The notes below the pieces were generated by a model that saw only the letters and a program-made list of their open reading frames with translations, did not search any database and had not been told where the DNA came from. DNA of 64,000 nucleotides. Source: Terriglobia bacterium. GTDB lineage: Bacteria; Acidobacteriota; Terriglobia; Acidiferrales; UBA7541. Position 1 is the first letter of the stretch, and each line of letters begins with the position of its first letter. This document shows, in pieces, positions 2,356 through 25,342 of this stretch. The DNA lies in the NCBI GenBank assembly GCA_041497835.1, contig JBGQHF010000002.1, forward strand, positions 16,500 to 80,499, written 5' to 3'. Position numbers and translations under genes: made by a program.

Positions 2356-3657
2356 ATGTTTCTTCGCCTCGTTGCCGATTCCTTCTCGCGCCGCCTGAGC
2401 CGGCAGCTTCTGACGGCCGCCGCGCTCGCCCTGGGCATGGCCGTGGCCACCGCGGCCTTGAGCGTTTCACTCGATGTGGGCGACCGGCTGGCGCGCGAAT
2501 TCCGCAGCCTGGGCGCGAACCTGCTGGTCACGCCACAGGCCGATTCTTTGCCGCTCGAAATCGGCGGAGTGGACTACCGGCCGGTCAACGCGGGCGCGTA
2601 CCTGCCGGAAGCGGACCTCGGGAAGCTCAAGACGATTTTCTGGCGGCACAATATCCTCGGTTTTGCGCCCGTGCTGGAAGTTCCGGCGGTGATTCTGACG
2701 CCGCCCGTCGGCATGGACGACGCGCCGTGGGTTATCACGCCCATGACCGTAATCGGAACGTGGTCCCAGCACGCGGTTTCCGTTCCGGATGGCGTCACCG
2801 TTCACACCGGGGTTGAAAAAACAAATCCCTGGTGGCGGGTCGAGGGCCGCTGGTTCAGCGAAGCGGGGGGCGAGTGCGTCGTCGGCCGGTTCTTCGCGCG
2901 CCGCACGGGAGTGCGAATCGGCGGCACCATTCTGGTGAAGAACAGCCCTCAGAATATTCCGTTGCAGGTGACCGGAGTCCTGGATACCAGCGGTCCGGAA
3001 GACGACGCGATCGTCGTGCCCATTGGGCTGGCACAGAAGCTCTCCGACAAACCCGGACAGTATCGCCGGCTCTATGTCAGCGCCTTGACGAAGCCGGAAG
3101 ATGAGTTTGGGAGGCGTGATCCGAAGTCCATGACATCCGCGGAATTCGACCGCTGGTTCTGCACCCCGTATATCTCCGCGATTGCTCTGCAGATTCAGCA
3201 GGCTCTGCCCGGCACGGACGCGCGCGTGATCCGTCGCGTGGCCGAAGGCGAGGGCCGCATCCTGACGCGTCTGCGAAATTTGCTTTGGCTCGTGGCGGGG
3301 GCGGCGTTGCTGGCCGCGGCTCTGGCCGTGGGCGCGACGTCCGCGGCCACGATTATCGAGCGCCGCACGGAGATCGGCCTCATGAAGGCACTGGGCGCGG
3401 GGACGGACATGGTGAAGAGCCTCTTTGCGGCGGAGCAGATTCTCCTCTCCCTGGTAGGCGGTGCGGCCGGCTATGCGCTCGGCATCATTCTAGCGCGGCT
3501 CCTCGGACAGATTGTTTTCGGCGCGGCGCCGCAGCCTTCGCCGCTGGTCTTTGCCGTTGTGATGGGGCTTGCCGTTGCCGTCACGCTTCTCGGCAGCGCG
3601 GTTTCCCTGCGGCGGGCTGCACGTCTGGAGCCCGCTCCAATTCTGCGAGGCGAATGA
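2356..3657 (+). CDS. FtsX/MacB-family ABC permease
   Basis: N-terminal TM, EFRSLGANLLV, ERRTEIGLMKALGA, three C-terminal TMs. Confidence 0.88.
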   Translation: MFLRLVADSFSRRLSRQLLTAAALALGMAVATAALSVSLDVGDRLAREFRSLGANLLVTPQADSLPLEIGGVDYRPVNAGAYLPEADLGKLKTIFWRHNILGFAPVLEVPAVILTPPVGMDDAPWVITPMTVIGTWSQHAVSVPDGVTVHTGVEKTNPWWRVEGRWFSEAGGECVVGRFFARRTGVRIGGTILVKNSPQNIPLQVTGVLDTSGPEDDAIVVPIGLAQKLSDKPGQYRRLYVSALTKPEDEFGRRDPKSMTSAEFDRWFCTPYISAIALQIQQALPGTDARVIRRVAEGEGRILTRLRNLLWLVAGAALLAAALAVGATSAATIIERRTEIGLMKALGAGTDMVKSLFAAEQILLSLVGGAAGYALGIILARLLGQIVFGAAPQPSPLVFAVVMGLAVAVTLLGSAVSLRRAARLEPAPILRGE

Positions 3658-19777: not shown

Positions 19778-20341
19778 CTAGTGGCTCGGTTTGTCGTTCG
19801 GTCCACCGTTGGAACCCGAAGCAAGCAGCGTTCGAATCGCCGCTTCAAAGGTCTCACGATCCCCGGCACCGAAGTAGTGGCCGATCTGTCTTCCATCCGC
19901 AGCGTAAAAGAAAGAGGCGGGAAGGGATCCATTCCAGGCGGCGTTGACGGCCCGCACGAATTCGTCGTTCTTTCCCGCGCGCTTGCGGTAGTTCGGAAAG
20001 ACCGGCTGATGGCGCGCCAGGAACCGCCGCACCAGGATCATTTCGCCGTCGTCATCGAGGCTGACGCCGACAACGTGCAGACCTTTCGGTGCGTATTGTT
20101 TTGCGAGCTGGTTGAGGAGCGGGTATTCGTCGCGGCAGGGTTCGCACCAGGTAGCCCAGAAATTCACGAGAAGCGCCTTGCCGCGATACTTCTCGAGGAG
20201 TTGCTTGTACCCCTGCTCGTCGATCAGCTCCGGGTCGCGGGGAGCCTTTGCCTGCGGTGCCGCCAGCGCAGCCGCGGCAGCCAACAAAAGAACCACGCCA
20301 AGCCAAGTCCGGTTTCTCACAGTGATCTCCGTCCCTGGCAT
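19778..20341 (-). CDS. TlpA-family thiol-disulfide oxidoreductase
   Basis: Signal peptide; LLVNFWATWCEPC; LPAS. Confidence 0.88.
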   Translation of the reverse strand: MPGTEITVRNRTWLGVVLLLAAAAALAAPQAKAPRDPELIDEQGYKQLLEKYRGKALLVNFWATWCEPCRDEYPLLNQLAKQYAPKGLHVVGVSLDDDGEMILVRRFLARHQPVFPNYRKRAGKNDEFVRAVNAAWNGSLPASFFYAADGRQIGHYFGAGDRETFEAAIRTLLASGSNGGPNDKPSH

Positions 20342-20361
20342 TCTATCCACTCGCGTCACAG

Positions 20362-20377
20362 TTGAGAATCTGATTCC
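20362..20377 (+). repeat. attL core
   Basis: TTGAGAATCTGATTCC, identical to 24847-24862 (18/19 match if extended by 3 nt). Confidence 0.88.
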
Positions 20378-20438
20378 TCCGTCTAAAACCCCGCCCAAAC
20401 AAAGGCCCGAAGCAACACGGTGTCCAACAGGTGTCCAG

Positions 20439-20759
20439 ATGCTCAAAAGATACGGTAAGTGGATGGCCGACTGGCGGGACCAACACGGCAAGCGCCACAG
20501 GAAAGCCTGCCGCTCGAAGACCGCCGCCGCGCAACTCGGTGCGAAGATGCGCCGATGCGAAGCAGCAAAAAAAGACCAGCCCTCGGGGACATCGGCCAAA
20601 TCCTCACGACGTGGGCGCAAGGCTGGCCGCCGAACACCGCGAACCGCCAAGTCGCGCTCGAACTCACCGCGGAAATCGGCCACCTACAACCGCGCCAACT
20701 CAGCAGCTTCATCGCAGAAGCCTTCTTCGCAAAATGGCGAACACGCTACTCGCCCATGA
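20439..20759 (+). CDS. Integrase arm-domain-like ORF (zero frame); possible N-terminus of a frameshifted integrase
   Basis: MLKRYGKWMADWRDQHGKRHRKACRSKTAAAQ resembles arm-type DNA-binding domains; the A7 run at 20567-20573 joins it to the catalytic frame by a -1 shift. Confidence 0.65.
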   Translation: MLKRYGKWMADWRDQHGKRHRKACRSKTAAAQLGAKMRRCEAAKKDQPSGTSAKSSRRGRKAGRRTPRTAKSRSNSPRKSATYNRANSAASSQKPSSQNGEHATRP

Positions 20760-21403
20760 CGCTCTACACACGCCGAGCCATCTACCAACGACTTCTCGGT
20801 GTCCTCACGCAGTACGGCGCACCGCCCATCAAACTCAGCAAGGTCAGAAAACCAGAACCACGCGGCGTCACCGCAACGCAGGAAGAAATCCAGAAACTTC
20901 TAGGCGCAGCGACGCCGGCACTCCGACTCTTCATCATCCTCTGTTGGCAGCTCGCCCTCCGAAGAAGCGAAGCCCTGGCCGTCACACCGCTGTCCTACGA
21001 CGACAAAACCCATACAGTCTGCATCCGGACCAAAGGCGGAAAGATGCGACGCATCCCGCTCACCAGCGACGCGGAAGAAATGATCCGCGTCGCCAGCAAA
21101 TCCGCAGCAGACCCCTCCGAAAGCTGCGTCTCCATCCTCAACGGAAGGCCGATGAAGCGCATGGACAAACGCTGGTGGCAGCTAACGAAGAAATGCAACC
21201 TCACTCACATCCACCCCCACGACCTCCGCAGAACCACCGCGACGAATCTCTACCGCACGACCCACGACATCCGGGCCGTGCAGCAGTACCTCGGACACAC
21301 ACAACTGGTGTCCACAACCCACTACCTCGCGCCACTCTCCGAGGAGCAGCTGCGCGGGATGCACCAACTCCTCAACTTCCACGGAAAGGGAGCGCCCAAC
21401 TGA
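20555..21403 (+). CDS. Tyrosine recombinase/integrase, core-binding and catalytic portion
   Basis: LALRRSE (R), RTKGGK (K), HPHDLRR (HxxR), LGH...STTHY (H, Y); all catalytic residues present. Confidence 0.92.
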   Translation: MRSSKKRPALGDIGQILTTWAQGWPPNTANRQVALELTAEIGHLQPRQLSSFIAEAFFAKWRTRYSPMTLYTRRAIYQRLLGVLTQYGAPPIKLSKVRKPEPRGVTATQEEIQKLLGAATPALRLFIILCWQLALRRSEALAVTPLSYDDKTHTVCIRTKGGKMRRIPLTSDAEEMIRVASKSAADPSESCVSILNGRPMKRMDKRWWQLTKKCNLTHIHPHDLRRTTATNLYRTTHDIRAVQQYLGHTQLVSTTHYLAPLSEEQLRGMHQLLNFHGKGAPN

Positions 21404-21585
21404 TGGACACCAACAAACACATGACGGACCCGGAAGCCTTCATCGCACTCGGCGACCTACTGCTAGACAACTTCGACCCACAGGACACCATGCACGGCAT
21501 CCTCAGCGACAAAAGGGTGGACGCCATCCTGACCGCGCAGCGTGCCCTCGTGGAACGCATCGCGCGCAACACCCCCATAGGCTAG
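21403..21585 (+). CDS. Element hypothetical protein (60 aa)
   Basis: TGATG overlap with the integrase stop; MDTNKHMTDPEAFIALGDLLLDNFD. Confidence 0.65.
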   Translation: MDTNKHMTDPEAFIALGDLLLDNFDPQDTMHGILSDKRVDAILTAQRALVERIARNTPIG

Positions 21586-21593
21586 AGGACACC

Positions 21594-21782
21594 ATGACGA
21601 ACGTCGCAGACCAAAGATGGATAGTCCGCATCACCTGCGGACCATGGGCCATCCGCGAACTCGTCAACGCCCCGGACCAGCGCATCGCCGCAAACCGCGC
21701 TCTGCAACTCTTCAACCACAAATTCGACCCGGACACCGCGATGACCATCACGGTGTCCCTCCAGCAGGAGCCGCACACATGA
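21594..21782 (+). CDS. Element hypothetical protein (62 aa)
   Basis: RBS-like AGAGGACACC directly before the ATG. Confidence 0.7.
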   Translation: MTNVADQRWIVRITCGPWAIRELVNAPDQRIAANRALQLFNHKFDPDTAMTITVSLQQEPHT

Positions 21783-21937
21783 TTGCCGTCTACTACGTCA
21801 AGCTCCGCAAACCAACACCACCAGCGCGGCCGCACGACAACTGCGCCTGCCGCCACGTCCGGCTACACCACGGGCCGAAACGCGGCCCCTGCACCATCAC
21901 GAACTGCCCCTGTCCGCACTTCAAGAGGACACCATGA
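21779..21937 (+). CDS. Element Cys/His-rich micro-protein (52 aa), putative zinc finger
   Basis: ATGA overlap; CACRHVRLHHGPKRGPCTITNCPCPHF. Confidence 0.65.
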   Translation: MIAVYYVKLRKPTPPARPHDNCACRHVRLHHGPKRGPCTITNCPCPHFKRTP

Positions 21938-22152
21938 GCCGCCGCACCTACCGCTGCGTAATCGAGTGGAACCACCGAAAGTGGGGTCCACAAATGCAGA
22001 AGAGCGTGGCGGAAGGTACCTCGATCCGCCGCGCCATCAACAACGCACTCCTGGCCTTCTTCTCGGACACCAGCCAGCGAGAGCATCGCCGCGACGCCCA
22101 CGCCCACATCGAAATCAAGGCGTGGCGCGTCAAGAAAGAAGCCGCGAAGTGA
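21934..22152 (+). CDS. Element hypothetical protein (72 aa)
   Basis: AGAGGACACC before the ATG; ATGA overlap. Confidence 0.7.
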   Translation: MSRRTYRCVIEWNHRKWGPQMQKSVAEGTSIRRAINNALLAFFSDTSQREHRRDAHAHIEIKAWRVKKEAAK

Positions 22153-22373
22153 CGCCACTCGACGCGCTAGAAATCGCAGCCACCGTCCTGATCGCACTCT
22201 GGTGCGGTCAGACCATCGTGCACATCACCCGAACCGCCATCCGAGAGGACACCGCGACGAAACTCCAGCAAGAGGCAGAGCACGGCGCAACCAAACGCCA
22301 CGTCCGCGACGCCCACGGTCAAGGACACCAAGAAGTCAAACCACCAACACCCAAAGAAAGGAGGACCCCTTGA
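22149..22373 (+). CDS. Element single-TM protein (74 aa)
   Basis: GTGA overlap; LEIAATVLIALWCGQTIVHI hydrophobic segment. Confidence 0.6.
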   Translation: MTPLDALEIAATVLIALWCGQTIVHITRTAIREDTATKLQQEAEHGATKRHVRDAHGQGHQEVKPPTPKERRTP

Positions 22374-22531
22374 ACGAATACACAGTGACCATCAGCGACG
22401 GAATCCTCTCCATCCCGCAAACCGTCACAGCCGAAACCCACAAGGCCGCCGCCCTCGAAGCCCTGACCCATCTCGACGAATCGAAGCTCGACCCAGCGGC
22501 CGACCTCATCATCAACGTCACCACTCCCTGA
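22370..22531 (+). CDS. Element hypothetical protein (53 aa)
   Basis: TTGA overlap, AGGAGG upstream; MNEYTVTISDGILSIPQTVTAE. Confidence 0.6.
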   Translation: MNEYTVTISDGILSIPQTVTAETHKAAALEALTHLDESKLDPAADLIINVTTP

Positions 22532-23598
22532 GCGACCGCAGCGGCGTGCAGGGCTGAGAAGCGCCAGCACGCCGCCGCTCGTCTCACGGAGCCGCAGCGG
22601 CATCGGCGTGCCATCGGCGCATCGCCACGGGCCGCAAGAGGAGCGAGCATGCGGCCCGCGCTCGCGCTGGAAGAAGCACGCCTCACGCCGCTGCTGGTCC
22701 TCGGCCCTCGACCAGCGGTGTCCATCGCCGGACAAATCTCAGAGTTGCGCAGCTGTAAAAAGTGGATGCCTGCGCGCGGCACGCGTTCGGCCGCAAATCG
22801 CTTCGCTGCGTCCTCCGCCGTCGGACAGCCGCGCGAGAATCCCGCGCGGTTCTCGACCTTCACTAGTGCGGTTGCGGCGTCGCAGCATGTCGGTCGCCGC
22901 GCAAAAACAAAAGCGCGCGTCGCCCGCCCTGCGCGCCGCCGCGTCTTCCGGCACGCTCCGCCCCACGCCGTACCGCTCTCCGCACGGCGTGGGGCCCGCG
23001 TCGCGGCGGTCCTCGGCATTCGGCGCGCCCGCATCATCGAAGAACGTTATGAAGGATGCGGGCAAACGCGCCGAAAGCCTGTGGGCCGCGCCCGCGCAGA
23101 ACCAGCGCGGTCGCCGGTTCGTGTCCGTGCCGGAACGGGCCGCGCGGCAGCACCCGCAAAAGAGGGCGGGTGTCATGGCCGCGCGGCCCCGCGCCCCGTG
23201 CATCTCCCCTCGTCCGCAGATCGCCGCTCGTCTGTGCGGGCCACCATAGCGGGCGCGGCCTTCTGCCGCGCCCTGGTGTCCCGCAGCTCGCGGCGTTTTT
23301 TGTTGCGGCGGCTGTCCCGCCGCCGTTCGCGTCTCTATCCGTCCTCGTGTTCGGTCAGGGTCTCCACGGGGCGCGGTCCGTTCCGGCCCGGCCAACGGAT
23401 TATTGAAGAGAAAGAAACACCATCGCCCCGCGCGCCGCAGATCGAGCGATGCGGCGCGCGATGTTGCAGCCTGGGCGACCGCGATCGCGGCTCCTGGCTG
23501 GCGGGGAGCCGCGTTCGCGCTACAATCCCCCACAGCAACAGCCAACCGCTCACTGATCGGAGAGCAACCGCCCGCCACACCACGGCGGGCGGCTCCCC
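22532..23598. other. About 1.06 kb hairpin-dense, probably non-coding region inside the element
   Basis: At least 13 perfect 6-11 bp stems, e.g. 22961-22971/22984-22994, 23138-23148/23178-23188, 23429-23439/23450-23460, 23568-23576/23584-23592. Confidence 0.7.
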
Positions 23599-23919
23599 AT
23601 GACGCCCGCAGAACGCCAGCGCCGCTATCGACAGAGGCACCAAGACGAAGAGAAAAACCGTCGAGCCTCACCCCACCACAAGGAAACTCTGGCGCGCTGC
23701 AAAGCCCGCCGCGACCCCAACCGCGATCGCGAGCACAAACAAGAGCTCTACTTCCGCTTCCACGGCCACCACCACTCCGGATGCAACGCTCTGCAACTCA
23801 AAACGCCGCGCCTGTCATGGCTGGACACCGCAGGCCGCATCCACCACGACGACCTCCGCTCGGCCGAAGAAGTGATCGCCGAGCACGAAGAGAAGGAAAA
23901 AAGGGAGTCCTCACAATGA
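23599..23919 (+). CDS. Element hypothetical protein (106 aa)
   Basis: Basic helical N-terminus MTPAERQRRYRQRH; element-type codon bias. Confidence 0.7.
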   Translation: MTPAERQRRYRQRHQDEEKNRRASPHHKETLARCKARRDPNRDREHKQELYFRFHGHHHSGCNALQLKTPRLSWLDTAGRIHHDDLRSAEEVIAEHEEKEKRESSQ

Positions 23920-24224
23920 GCAAGCTGACGCCAAAAGACGCACGCAATCTCCTCGACGTTTACTTCCAGAAGGACACCAACAGCGAGACAGTCGCCGAAG
24001 CAGACCGCGACGCAAAAATCTGGCTGCGAGCGCAGACCGCAATCGTGAAAGGACACCACGCCCGCGAGCTCGCCGAAATCCACTTCGCCGACCTGTCCGG
24101 CAAAGCCACACCTACACAGCTCGAGCTACGCAACCAACTGATGAAAACAATCTGGCTGCAGGCCGAGAGCGAACAACTCGCCAGTGAGGAGGCCGCCGCC
24201 CATGCCGAAACCCACGAAACTTGA
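23916..24224 (+). CDS. Element hypothetical protein (102 aa)
   Basis: ATGA overlap with GGAG upstream; MSKLTPKDARNLLDVYFQKD. Confidence 0.7.
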   Translation: MSKLTPKDARNLLDVYFQKDTNSETVAEADRDAKIWLRAQTAIVKGHHARELAEIHFADLSGKATPTQLELRNQLMKTIWLQAESEQLASEEAAAHAETHET

Positions 24225-24417
24225 GGAGCGCCTGCAGCTGCTCGACGCCGAGCGACTCGTGCTCACCGTAGAGCTCCGCTGCGAGCTCATGCGCCAGGCG
24301 AAGAAACTCCTGCCCGCCGCGATCGCGCAGGCGCGCGCGAAGAAGGGAAGCCCCGCGCTGCTCCGAATCATCACCCGCCTGGCCATGAGGCCCGCCAACA
24401 TCGAGAGAAGGCACTGA
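24202..24417 (+). CDS. Element hypothetical helical protein (71 aa)
   Basis: GAGGAGG upstream; MPKPTKLEERLQLLDAERL. Confidence 0.65.
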   Translation: MPKPTKLEERLQLLDAERLVLTVELRCELMRQAKKLLPAAIAQARAKKGSPALLRIITRLAMRPANIERRH

Positions 24418-24846
24418 GAGCGCCGAGCGCGAAGCGCGACCGCGCCCTCAGCTCAACCAAATCCGAAAAACCGTGGGACCTCACACCCACGACCCAAAAT
24501 CGAGCGCCGCCGCTGACGTCGTGGAAGTCAACTCACTTCACTTCCAAACAACACCGCGCCTCGGGCGGCCCGGCCAGATCGGCTAGCTGTCCGGGCCGCT
24601 GCTACTCGGCGCAGATCCCCAGCTCGACCCTAAACGACCGATAATCGCCCAAAGCGCCGACCGACAAACACGCTGTCACGCACAAACCACCACCCCACCA
24701 CCCTGCCGGTCCCCGACCCGCCCCGACGGACACCAAACCCGCCAAGTGTCCAACAAACCGCTGGACACCGCAGCGAAAAGAGCGTAGACCGATAGCACAG
24801 ATGGACACCGCAGCCTATCGGACCGCAAGAGGCAGGGGCAATAGAT

Positions 24847-24862
24847 TTGAGAATCTGATTCC
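24847..24862 (+). repeat. attR core
   Basis: TTGAGAATCTGATTCC, identical to 20362-20377. Confidence 0.88.
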
Positions 24863-24875
24863 CCCCGCGTAGAAT
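24847..24875 (+). promoter_or_regulatory. Sigma70-type promoter for ferredoxin, overlapping attR
   Basis: TTGAGA (24847-24852), 17 nt, TAGAAT (24870-24875). Confidence 0.55.
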
Positions 24876-24991
24876 CAGGAGAGTCGGCTTGTTCCACCCA
24901 GCGGAGACGTGCTATAAAAGCCGTTTCGCCGGCAGGACTTCCGTCTGGAGAAGCCGCCGATTTGACCGGACCACGCTAAAGGAGATTCCTG

Positions 24992-25258
24992 ATGGCTTAC
25001 GTGATTGCCGAACCGTGCATCGGCACAAAGGACACCGCGTGTGTGGACGTCTGCCCGGTGGATTGCATCCACCCGCGCAAGGACGAGCCGAATTTCGAGA
25101 GCGAGACGCAGCTCTACATCCATCCGACCGAGTGCATAGACTGCGGAGCGTGCGTGCCGGTCTGCCCCGTCACCGCGATCTTTGCTCTGGAAGACCTGCC
25201 GGAGAAGTGGCAGAACTTCACGCCGATCAACGCGGATTGGTTCGCAAAGAAGGTCTAA
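24992..25258 (+). CDS. 2[4Fe-4S]-type ferredoxin
   Basis: [17 protein letters not shown] and [12 protein letters not shown]. Confidence 0.95.
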
Positions 25259-25342
25259 GACATCCTCGATCCGGGCGCGGATTCGCGCTCGATTTTGGCG
25301 GCGTGCCCAGGCACGCCGCATTTTCTTTTTGGATGGATTGGC

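Follow-up and report, generated by a model that had tools for sequence, protein, structure and literature searches.

The element considered here lies in a 64,000-nucleotide stretch of a Terriglobia bacterium genome of the phylum Acidobacteriota (assembly GCA_041497835.1, contig JBGQHF010000002.1, positions 16,500 to 80,499), which is called the window and is numbered from its first letter. Two exact copies of a 16-bp direct repeat, TTGAGAATCTGATTCC (attL core, 20362-20377; attR core, 24847-24862; both on the plus strand), bracket an insert of 4,485 bp in which every plausible gene is on the plus strand. The first gene encodes a tyrosine integrase and is divided between two reading frames. Its 0-frame part (20439-20573, ATG at 20439) specifies a putative 45-codon arm-type, AP2-like head, and its -1-frame part (20573-21403) specifies the core-binding and catalytic domains; the frames meet at a slippery heptamer, A_AAA_AAA followed by G (20567-20573). 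Six translationally coupled open reading frames (ORFs), with start/stop overlaps of 1-4 nt, follow: A (21403-21585, 60 aa), B (21594-21782, 62 aa), C (21779-21937, 52 aa, rich in Cys and His), D (21934-22152, 72 aa), E (22149-22373, 74 aa, with one hydrophobic segment) and F (22370-22531, 53 aa). A GC-rich, non-coding hairpin block of approximately 1 kb, to which no strand is assigned (22540-23590), separates them from ORFs G (23599-23919, 106 aa, the largest of the cargo), H (23916-24224, 102 aa) and I (24202-24417, 71 aa). The insert is a real, currently mobile 4.5-kb micro-element and an active member of a family of very small site-specific integrative elements in Acidobacteriota. An earlier note on this DNA had described the exact repeat, six coupled ORFs of 52-74 aa, the hairpin block of about 1 kb and three further ORFs on one strand, all of which the repeat, ORF and composition analyses bear out. 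It had also recorded a tyrosine integrase, which stands (Pfam PF00589, E 9.5e-25), but the gene is not one simple ORF, as its first 45 codons are in another frame. The frameshift, the strand asymmetry and the arm-type sites described below had escaped that note.

The borders of the element are defined both by repeats and by composition. In addition to the exact 16-bp match, an extended version of the repeat agrees at 18 of 19 bases, and the chance expectation for an exact 16-bp pair in a 7.5-kb region is about 0.007 (2.8e7 position pairs x 4^-16). The core contains the palindrome GAATC-T-GATTC. The edges of a compositional island coincide with the two repeat copies, the (A+C-G-T) skew being 0.25-0.30 inside and averaging 0.004 (sd 0.064) in the remainder of the window. 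Contigs from eight public sediment metagenomes were aligned to the element region. In one run (X6), an empty-site contig links 20378 to 24864 and omits exactly 4,485 bp; it has a depth of 4.1, while the element is covered at 6.9-8.2 and the flank at 11.8-13.5, so that filled and empty sites together approximately account for the flank. In a second run (X5), a contig ending at 20377-20380 runs on into CGCGTAGAAT, which is found on the right side of attR, as a loose-end junction, and the flank has about twice the depth of the element. These junctions reveal that filled and empty sites of the element coexist in nature within the same populations, and the empty site sought after the earlier note was thus found. 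An exact-protein look-up of the neighbouring ferredoxin retrieved filled sites only. Positions 20200-25100 are 100% identical across six assemblies from six different samples, as far as the contigs reach. The element sits in the divergent promoter region between a tlpA-like redoxin gene on the minus strand to the left and a ferredoxin gene (24992-25258) to the right. A tRNA gene as the integration target was rejected, as there is no tRNA gene anywhere in the 64-kb window.

More than 20 related loci were found in Acidobacteriota by genome and metagenome scans and exact-protein look-ups; their named hosts are Acidobacteria, Terriglobia or Candidatus Acidoferrum, and their habitats are soil and sediment. 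About 60 protein clusters, all from metagenomes or metagenome-assembled genomes and called at 192-364 aa, are related to the integrase. As tblastx between elements was swamped by compositional matches, it was replaced by phmmer and by blastp with composition correction. Ten relatives are complete (nine of them distinct, L008 being a near-duplicate of L007), each with its own flanking repeats of 12-24 bp: L256 (3,343 bp, 19-bp repeat), the smallest member; L176 (3,613 bp, 14-bp repeat); L012 (3,799 bp, 18-bp repeat); L177 (4,298 bp, 19-bp repeat); L014 (4,415 bp, 24-bp repeat); L013 (4,932 bp, 12-bp repeat); L011 (4,956 bp, 16-bp repeat); L007/L008 (5,150 bp, 22-bp repeat as measured on L007), which occupies the same tlpA-ferredoxin site as the element of the window; and L174 (7,093 bp, 21-bp repeat), the largest. 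The integration sites differ among most relatives. The complete relatives share one layout, consisting of the integrase, ORF D, the hairpin block (small or absent in L177), G and/or I, and a right arm. In every relative the strand skew begins and ends at the flanking repeats, and no complete relative is embedded in a larger element. The smallest codes for the integrase, D, a 63-aa ORF and a 98-aa ORF, the last with an I-like motif by eye, and also contains the block.

Three further relatives, L179 (2.7 kb), L254 (5.1 kb) and L255 (4.1 kb), are permuted contigs from which host DNA is absent; the soil or sediment data sets that yielded such contigs include Logan SRR21686411 and JGI 3300053491. 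In these contigs, G-like and I-like genes are followed by the right arm, about 90 nt containing the core, the left arm, the integrase and a D-like gene, as in the attP of an excised circle or in tandem copies; both ends of the L254 contig lie in the GC-rich block. Flanking repeats, an empty site and, in relatives, attP-type junctions were therefore all observed, as is the case for a site-specific integrative element. Searches of IMG/VR returned generic integrases only (at most 35% identity) and no family member, the phage and plasmid collections held none, and no paper describing the family was found in the literature. The family is thus apparently undescribed, in line with the undescribed class in Acidobacteria that the earlier note had proposed.

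The integrase module, with its recoding site, is well supported. In the joined protein, the PHROG_1 integrase profile aligns to residues 4-313, and R175, K199, H261, R264, H287 and Y296 are invariant in 26 sequences. An AlphaFold model is confident from about residue 50 on (predicted local distance difference test, pLDDT, >90), and its closest solved folds are Tn1549 Int, XerA, XerH, the integron integrase IntI and lambda Int, with E values down to 2e-10. The N-terminus, MLKRYGKWMADWRDQHGKRHRK...AAKK, is typical of arm-type domains, and its 45 aa are conserved across the family. The arm-binding domains of integrases are considered to be related to AP2 domains, and a weak resemblance to Pfam AP2 was seen in the heads of two of 18 members. 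Candidate arm-type sites lie on both sides of the insert, all given on the plus strand. On the left, two direct copies of GGTGTCCA (20419-20426 and 20430-20437) abut the integrase ATG; on the right are GGACACC (24728-24734), GTGTCCA (24746-24752) and two copies of TGGACACCGCAGC (24762-24774 and 24802-24814). The positions of the arm repeats are kept in every relative and their sequences are element-specific (e.g., GGTCTCC, GGTGTCAC, GCTGTCCA and GGCGGCCG), as is expected of arm-type sites that are matched to the N-terminal domain of each integrase.

After the 45 codons of the head, integrase homology moves to the -1 frame (KKRPALGDIGQ...) at a run of seven A residues, and the predicted trans-frame junction peptide of the joined integrase contains EAAKKRPALGDIGQ. 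The frame switch was compared in the window and in L007, L009-L015, L173-L182 and L254-L256. It falls at A_AAA_AAA in 20 of 21 family loci and at A_AAA_AAG in the remaining one, in integrases that are 33-73% identical to each other. The head before the heptamer is 45 codons long (44 in one locus), and KK[SR]P.LG is conserved directly after it in the -1 frame. Lys codons elsewhere in these genes are nearly evenly divided between AAA and AAG (137:141, 49% AAA); therefore, the all-A run is maintained at the nucleotide level. A slippery heptamer at the frame junction of such diverged homologues points to a conserved recoding site. Without a slip, the 0-frame of the window runs to a stop at 20757-20759 and yields a product of 106 aa. 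Among the loci examined, the 0-frame tail beyond the slip site extends for 8-61 codons, and its length is not conserved, so that the default product would be the arm-binding head with a variable tail. Because a -1 frame change is required, gene callers cut these integrases to 229-297 aa.

The hairpin block has a GC content of about 71% and no strand skew. It contains at least 11 short perfect or near-perfect inverted repeats, and between 22912 and 23361 it folds better than shuffled controls (z -2.3 to -7.4). No codon periodicity was detected in any long ORF of the block on either strand; a 317-aa ORF predicted by a gene caller (22649-23602) and the other block ORFs were rejected as genes, as base composition is flat across their codon positions. 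Rfam searches (gathering threshold for the whole window, E-value mode for 20000-25300) gave nothing meaningful, so that the block corresponds to no known RNA family, and no origin of transfer (oriT) was recognised in it. Most members of the family have such a block. The blocks of relatives vary in sequence and length, reaching at most about 1.4 kb of the 3.6-kb L176 (about 40%). The sole alignable stretch pairs window positions 22960-22995 with L176 positions 3149-3266; within it a 12-bp stem is kept through a paired A-to-G and T-to-C change. A purine-rich GAAAGAAA-type motif in or near the block was also considered and was rejected as inconsistent across elements.

Outside the block, the plus strand of the element consists of A 26.8, C 37.0, G 24.5 and T 11.7%, compared with A 18.5, C 31.7, G 30.0 and T 19.8% in the rest of the window. 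An excess of A+C on the sense strand is found in all relatives, and in the window it covers 20380-24846 except 22540-23590. T occupies 1-6% of third codon positions in the element and 10-15% in host genes, and the non-coding right end of the element is skewed as well; the skew is thus no effect of amino-acid usage. Its direction on the sense strand, from G to A and from T to C, is the outcome of C and A deamination on the antisense strand. The same kind of deamination skew is a feature of the vertebrate mitochondrial heavy strand. As judged from composition, this suggests that the antisense strand is single-stranded for part of the life cycle. Because a self-complementary block cannot carry such a skew, the unskewed block fits functional hairpins.

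With regard to the cargo, ORFs A-I gave no match in Pfam, PHROGs, NCBIfam, PADLOC or the Protein Data Bank (PDB) sequences, except for a weak match of ORF C to phrog_6114 (E 2.6e-4), a PHROG to which no function is assigned; ORF C may be a small zinc-binding protein. In particular, the searches of Pfam, PHROGs and NCBIfam gave no match to a HUH Rep, primase, Zot-type ATPase, terminase, capsid or relaxase in any ORF, and the same observation in the earlier note is upheld by these searches together with that of PADLOC. A reading of the cargo as a defence system was rejected, as PADLOC found nothing. ORF D is the best-conserved cargo protein of the family and, in relatives, usually the first gene after int. 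It is represented by 52 protein clusters with 54-77% identity, is better conserved than the integrase and is, on this basis, under selection. Its model (pLDDT 92) consists of a beta-hairpin, two helices and a strand (strand-strand-helix-helix-strand), and many Arg residues are invariant; the predicted fold and these residues make it a candidate nucleic-acid-binding protein. The Foldseek matches of D were all insignificant, with E 0.09 for the ribosomal proteins eL20/LX and E >0.01 for small phage proteins that are uncharacterised, and a profile search of 1.84 billion representatives retrieved 41 short stand-alone relatives and no fusions. Several to many relatives have conserved counterparts of ORFs G and I, and the motif GSPALLRLIxRLAMR of ORF I recurs in them. 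ORF G has a basic N-terminus, RRARYY..DPAWK, and the C-terminal pattern L.P.L.Y.D..G.LH.ED..SAEE.I; a homologue search with it returned the query alone, and its His cluster was rejected as a HUH motif because the cluster is not conserved in relatives. ORFs A, B, C, E, F and H are variable. In L254, an ORF of 28 aa (1621-1705) that is strongly hydrophobic, MNTSIRFTLAEAAILFGIAFLFGILLAS, follows the I-like gene and has no counterpart in the window.

These features can be combined into a mechanism, of which the recombination steps are the firmer part. Integration and excision would be carried out by a lambda-type (heterobivalent) tyrosine integrase that recognises the palindromic core together with arm sites, of which two adjoin the start codon of its gene and four lie close to the right end. 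Only a one-base backward slip at A_AAA_AAA, either by the ribosome or in effect by RNA polymerase through insertion of one extra A, would yield the full integrase. Without the slip, a short protein corresponding to the arm-binding head would be made and, by analogy with OrfA/OrfAB of IS3 and IS1 elements, would probably occupy the arm sites, thereby repressing the integrase promoter and/or setting the direction or rate of recombination, while the slip rate would keep the full integrase scarce. We infer this regulatory role of the head and the limiting role of the slip from that analogy. As no replication, packaging or transfer gene is recognisable, movement from cell to cell most likely occurs by hitching on a helper, either a phage or a conjugative element. 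The hairpin block might then be the cis-acting site for hitching (an origin, a packaging signal or an oriT), and the small proteins D, G and I might bind nucleic acids or act in regulation. The favoured reading is a hitcher that depends on a helper and has the hairpin block as its cis-acting site; it is considered somewhat better than evenly probable.

Several observations weigh against this reading or its parts. No helper, particle, packaging or transfer event was observed, and one or more of the orphans might have a role in replication or structure that went unrecognised. The block is small, or none was detected, in L177 by the criterion used. In the eight runs, the depth of the element never exceeds that of the flank, so that there is no sign of extrachromosomal copies of the window's own element, and no circle junction was found for it among the assembled contigs, which hide rare circles. 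The attP-type junctions come from the three relatives L179, L254 and L255 and not from the window's own element, and these contigs could stem from tandem copies instead of circles. The integrase head matches AP2 or arm domains only weakly (E 0.07-0.1, the value of 0.07 being for PDB sequences), and its structure prediction was of low confidence and uninformative. Finally, no conserved RNA structure was detected downstream of the slip site (RNAalifold, 19 sequences, 0 conserved pairs), so that slippage on the A-run could equally be that of the polymerase or of the ribosome.

The element resembles several known systems without matching any of them. It shares its very small size, its integrative nature, a tyrosine integrase and a restricted gene content with the phage-inducible chromosomal minimalist islands (PICMI). 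PICMI115, described as the smallest characterised satellite, has 6,110 bp with AlpA and a primase, and particles are supplied to PICMI entirely by a helper (PMC10803314). PICMI has a core of Int, AlpA and primase and resides beside fis in Vibrionaceae, whereas neither AlpA nor a primase is recognisable here, the host belongs to Acidobacteriota and sizes go down to 3.3 kb. To our knowledge, a frameshifted integrase, strand skew and a hairpin block are not traits of PICMI. In Pfam, PHROGs, NCBIfam and PADLOC, the integrase is the sole recognisable gene, which sets the element apart from PICI, P4-like, PLE and PICMI satellites, and it is likewise set apart from relaxase-bearing integrative mobilizable elements, as no ORF has a relaxase match. 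iOriTs are integrative elements with only a cis-acting site that hitch on conjugative elements (bioRxiv 10.64898/2026.01.13.699239). The non-coding structured block could be such a site, although the described iOriTs are genomic islands of nosocomial species and no oriT is recognisable in this acidobacterial element.

At the level of the integrase, lambda Int and the Int proteins of Tn916 and Tn1549 have the three-part build predicted here, namely an arm-binding head, a core-binding domain and a catalytic domain, and in their attP a short core is flanked on either side by arm sites, as by the candidate arm sites of the present element. In contrast to lambda-type integrases, the head here is in another frame, two candidate arm sites directly adjoin the start codon, and nothing recognisable as a Xis- or AlpA-type gene is present. 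The split itself is reminiscent of IS3 and IS1 elements (e.g., IS911), in which OrfA and OrfAB are made by a -1 frameshift at A_AAA_AAG and a DNA-binding module is encoded upstream of a catalytic module. In both cases a slippery heptamer divides the DNA-binding from the catalytic module, and here too a short protein and a full enzyme would be predicted to arise from one message. However, IS3 and IS1 encode a DDE transposase and have inverted repeats, whereas a tyrosine recombinase and att sites are present here. The rules for slippery heptamers are covered in the literature (PMC4066793). No report of such a head/enzyme split in a tyrosine integrase was found in the literature. It would provide a regulator and an enzyme at a fixed ratio from one gene, and the truncation by gene callers implies that the arm-binding domain is systematically overlooked in annotation. 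If the element is helper-dependent, the lower size limit of integrative hitchers would move to about 3.3 kb, compared with 6.1 kb for PICMI115, and Acidobacteria, a phylum that is dominant in soil and has received little study with respect to mobile elements, would be shown to harbour a satellite-like element. An unusual intermediate of replication or transfer is suggested by the extreme strand asymmetry and by the large size of the hairpin block.

The main rival to the helper-dependent reading is an autonomous replicon or virus-like agent, a micro-replicon or micro-virus in which an orphan protein (e.g., G, H or I) would be a new initiator acting on the block and one strand would be packaged or exported by small proteins of hydrophobic or basic character. 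Such an agent would account for the three attP-type contigs without host DNA, one of which, of 5.1 kb, has both ends in the hairpin block, and for the direction of the strand skew, which is as expected from long single-stranded exposure of one strand. The placement of all genes on one strand, the genome size of less than 7.1 kb and the hydrophobic character of ORF E and of the 28-aa ORF of L254 are also in its favour. These points are countered by the searches of Pfam, PHROGs and NCBIfam, in which no ORF matched a HUH Rep, a primase, a Zot-type ATPase or a capsid protein, and by the minimal 3,343-bp member, which codes for just Int, D and the 63-aa and 98-aa proteins. The depth of the window element at or below that of the flank and the lack of family members in IMG/VR and in the phage and plasmid collections argue in the same direction, and we consider autonomy unlikely.

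A further reading is an integrating single-stranded DNA (ssDNA) agent, namely a satellite or minimal virus, in which the antisense strand would be packaged or transferred, the block would serve as origin or packaging signal, orphans of 60-110 aa would replace Rep and coat, and integration would be throttled by the frameshift. The small integrating satellites of filamentous phages (RS1 and TLC) and ssDNA replicons are likewise a few kb long, with every gene on a single strand, very small proteins, an intergenic block rich in hairpins and a strand-biased composition; they use host XerCD and encode a HUH-type or RstA-type replication protein. In contrast to RS1 and TLC, the present element has its own integrase and no Rep match, and the strand that seems to be exposed to damage is the antisense strand, which is opposite to known ssDNA phages. 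The HUH-type Rep that marks an inovirus, ssDNA phage or rolling-circle plasmid and the Zot-like morphogenesis ATPase of inoviruses were found in no ORF. An ssDNA agent of this kind is regarded as rather improbable.

As for the frame change, it might be unprogrammed, that is, a sequencing error, an inactivating mutation or the boundary of two genes, one for an arm-binding protein and one for a Xer/Cre-like recombinase with an internal start. An internal start would agree with the ATG or GTG codons found in the catalytic frame 5-8 codons before the A-run in the window, L007, L009, L011, L178 and L254, and with the 282-aa product of gene callers, and the lack of a detected stimulatory RNA structure also counts in favour of an unprogrammed change. 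However, eight of 17 loci lack any start codon in the -1 frame from its last upstream stop to the slip site, so that translation of the catalytic frame cannot begin ahead of the site there, yet KK[SR]PxLG after the site is conserved. The recurrence of one heptamer at one position in all 21 diverged loci and the identity of the sequence in six assemblies from six samples also speak against it, the alignment of the joined protein with the full-length PHROG_1 integrase profile runs from one end to the other, and the 0-frame tail varies from 8 to 61 codons. An unprogrammed frame change is consequently very improbable, and programmed recoding is retained. The streamlined remnant that the earlier note had offered as an alternative, a deletion product of a larger prophage, satellite or integrative conjugative element with only integrase and att sites intact, would explain the tiny, unrecognisable cargo and a depth near one copy per genome but is hardly credible, given that relatives are not much larger but all 3.3-7.1 kb in one layout and never within a larger element, that ORF D is kept at 54-77% identity across 52 clusters, that the skew stops exactly at the att repeats, and that an empty site and attP-type junctions exist.

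Some minor features of the flanks and of the largest relative were also recorded. A promoter-like site, TTGAGA-17-TAGAAT (24847-24875, plus strand), lies upstream of the ferredoxin gene, with the -35 hexamer TTGAGA (24847-24852) in the attR core and TAGAAT at 24870-24875. A mirror promoter-like site (20368-20340, minus strand), with its -35 hexamer from the attL core, lies upstream of the tlpA-like redoxin gene; both are consensus matches only. As each core copy supplies the -35-like hexamer of one flanking gene, one promoter-like site per copy would survive insertion. In L174 (6924-14037), the extra cargo includes a 146-aa GNAT-like protein with a weak Mom-family match (E 0.002, below the curated cut-off), a small protein that resembles a Phd-type antitoxin by eye only and has no Pfam match, two Cys-rich zinc-ribbon-like proteins and one membrane-anchored protein of 208 aa. 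In several runs, the contig depth over the ferredoxin gene (25036-25222) is 3-8x that of its surroundings, which is likely due to conserved sequence that is common to many related organisms.

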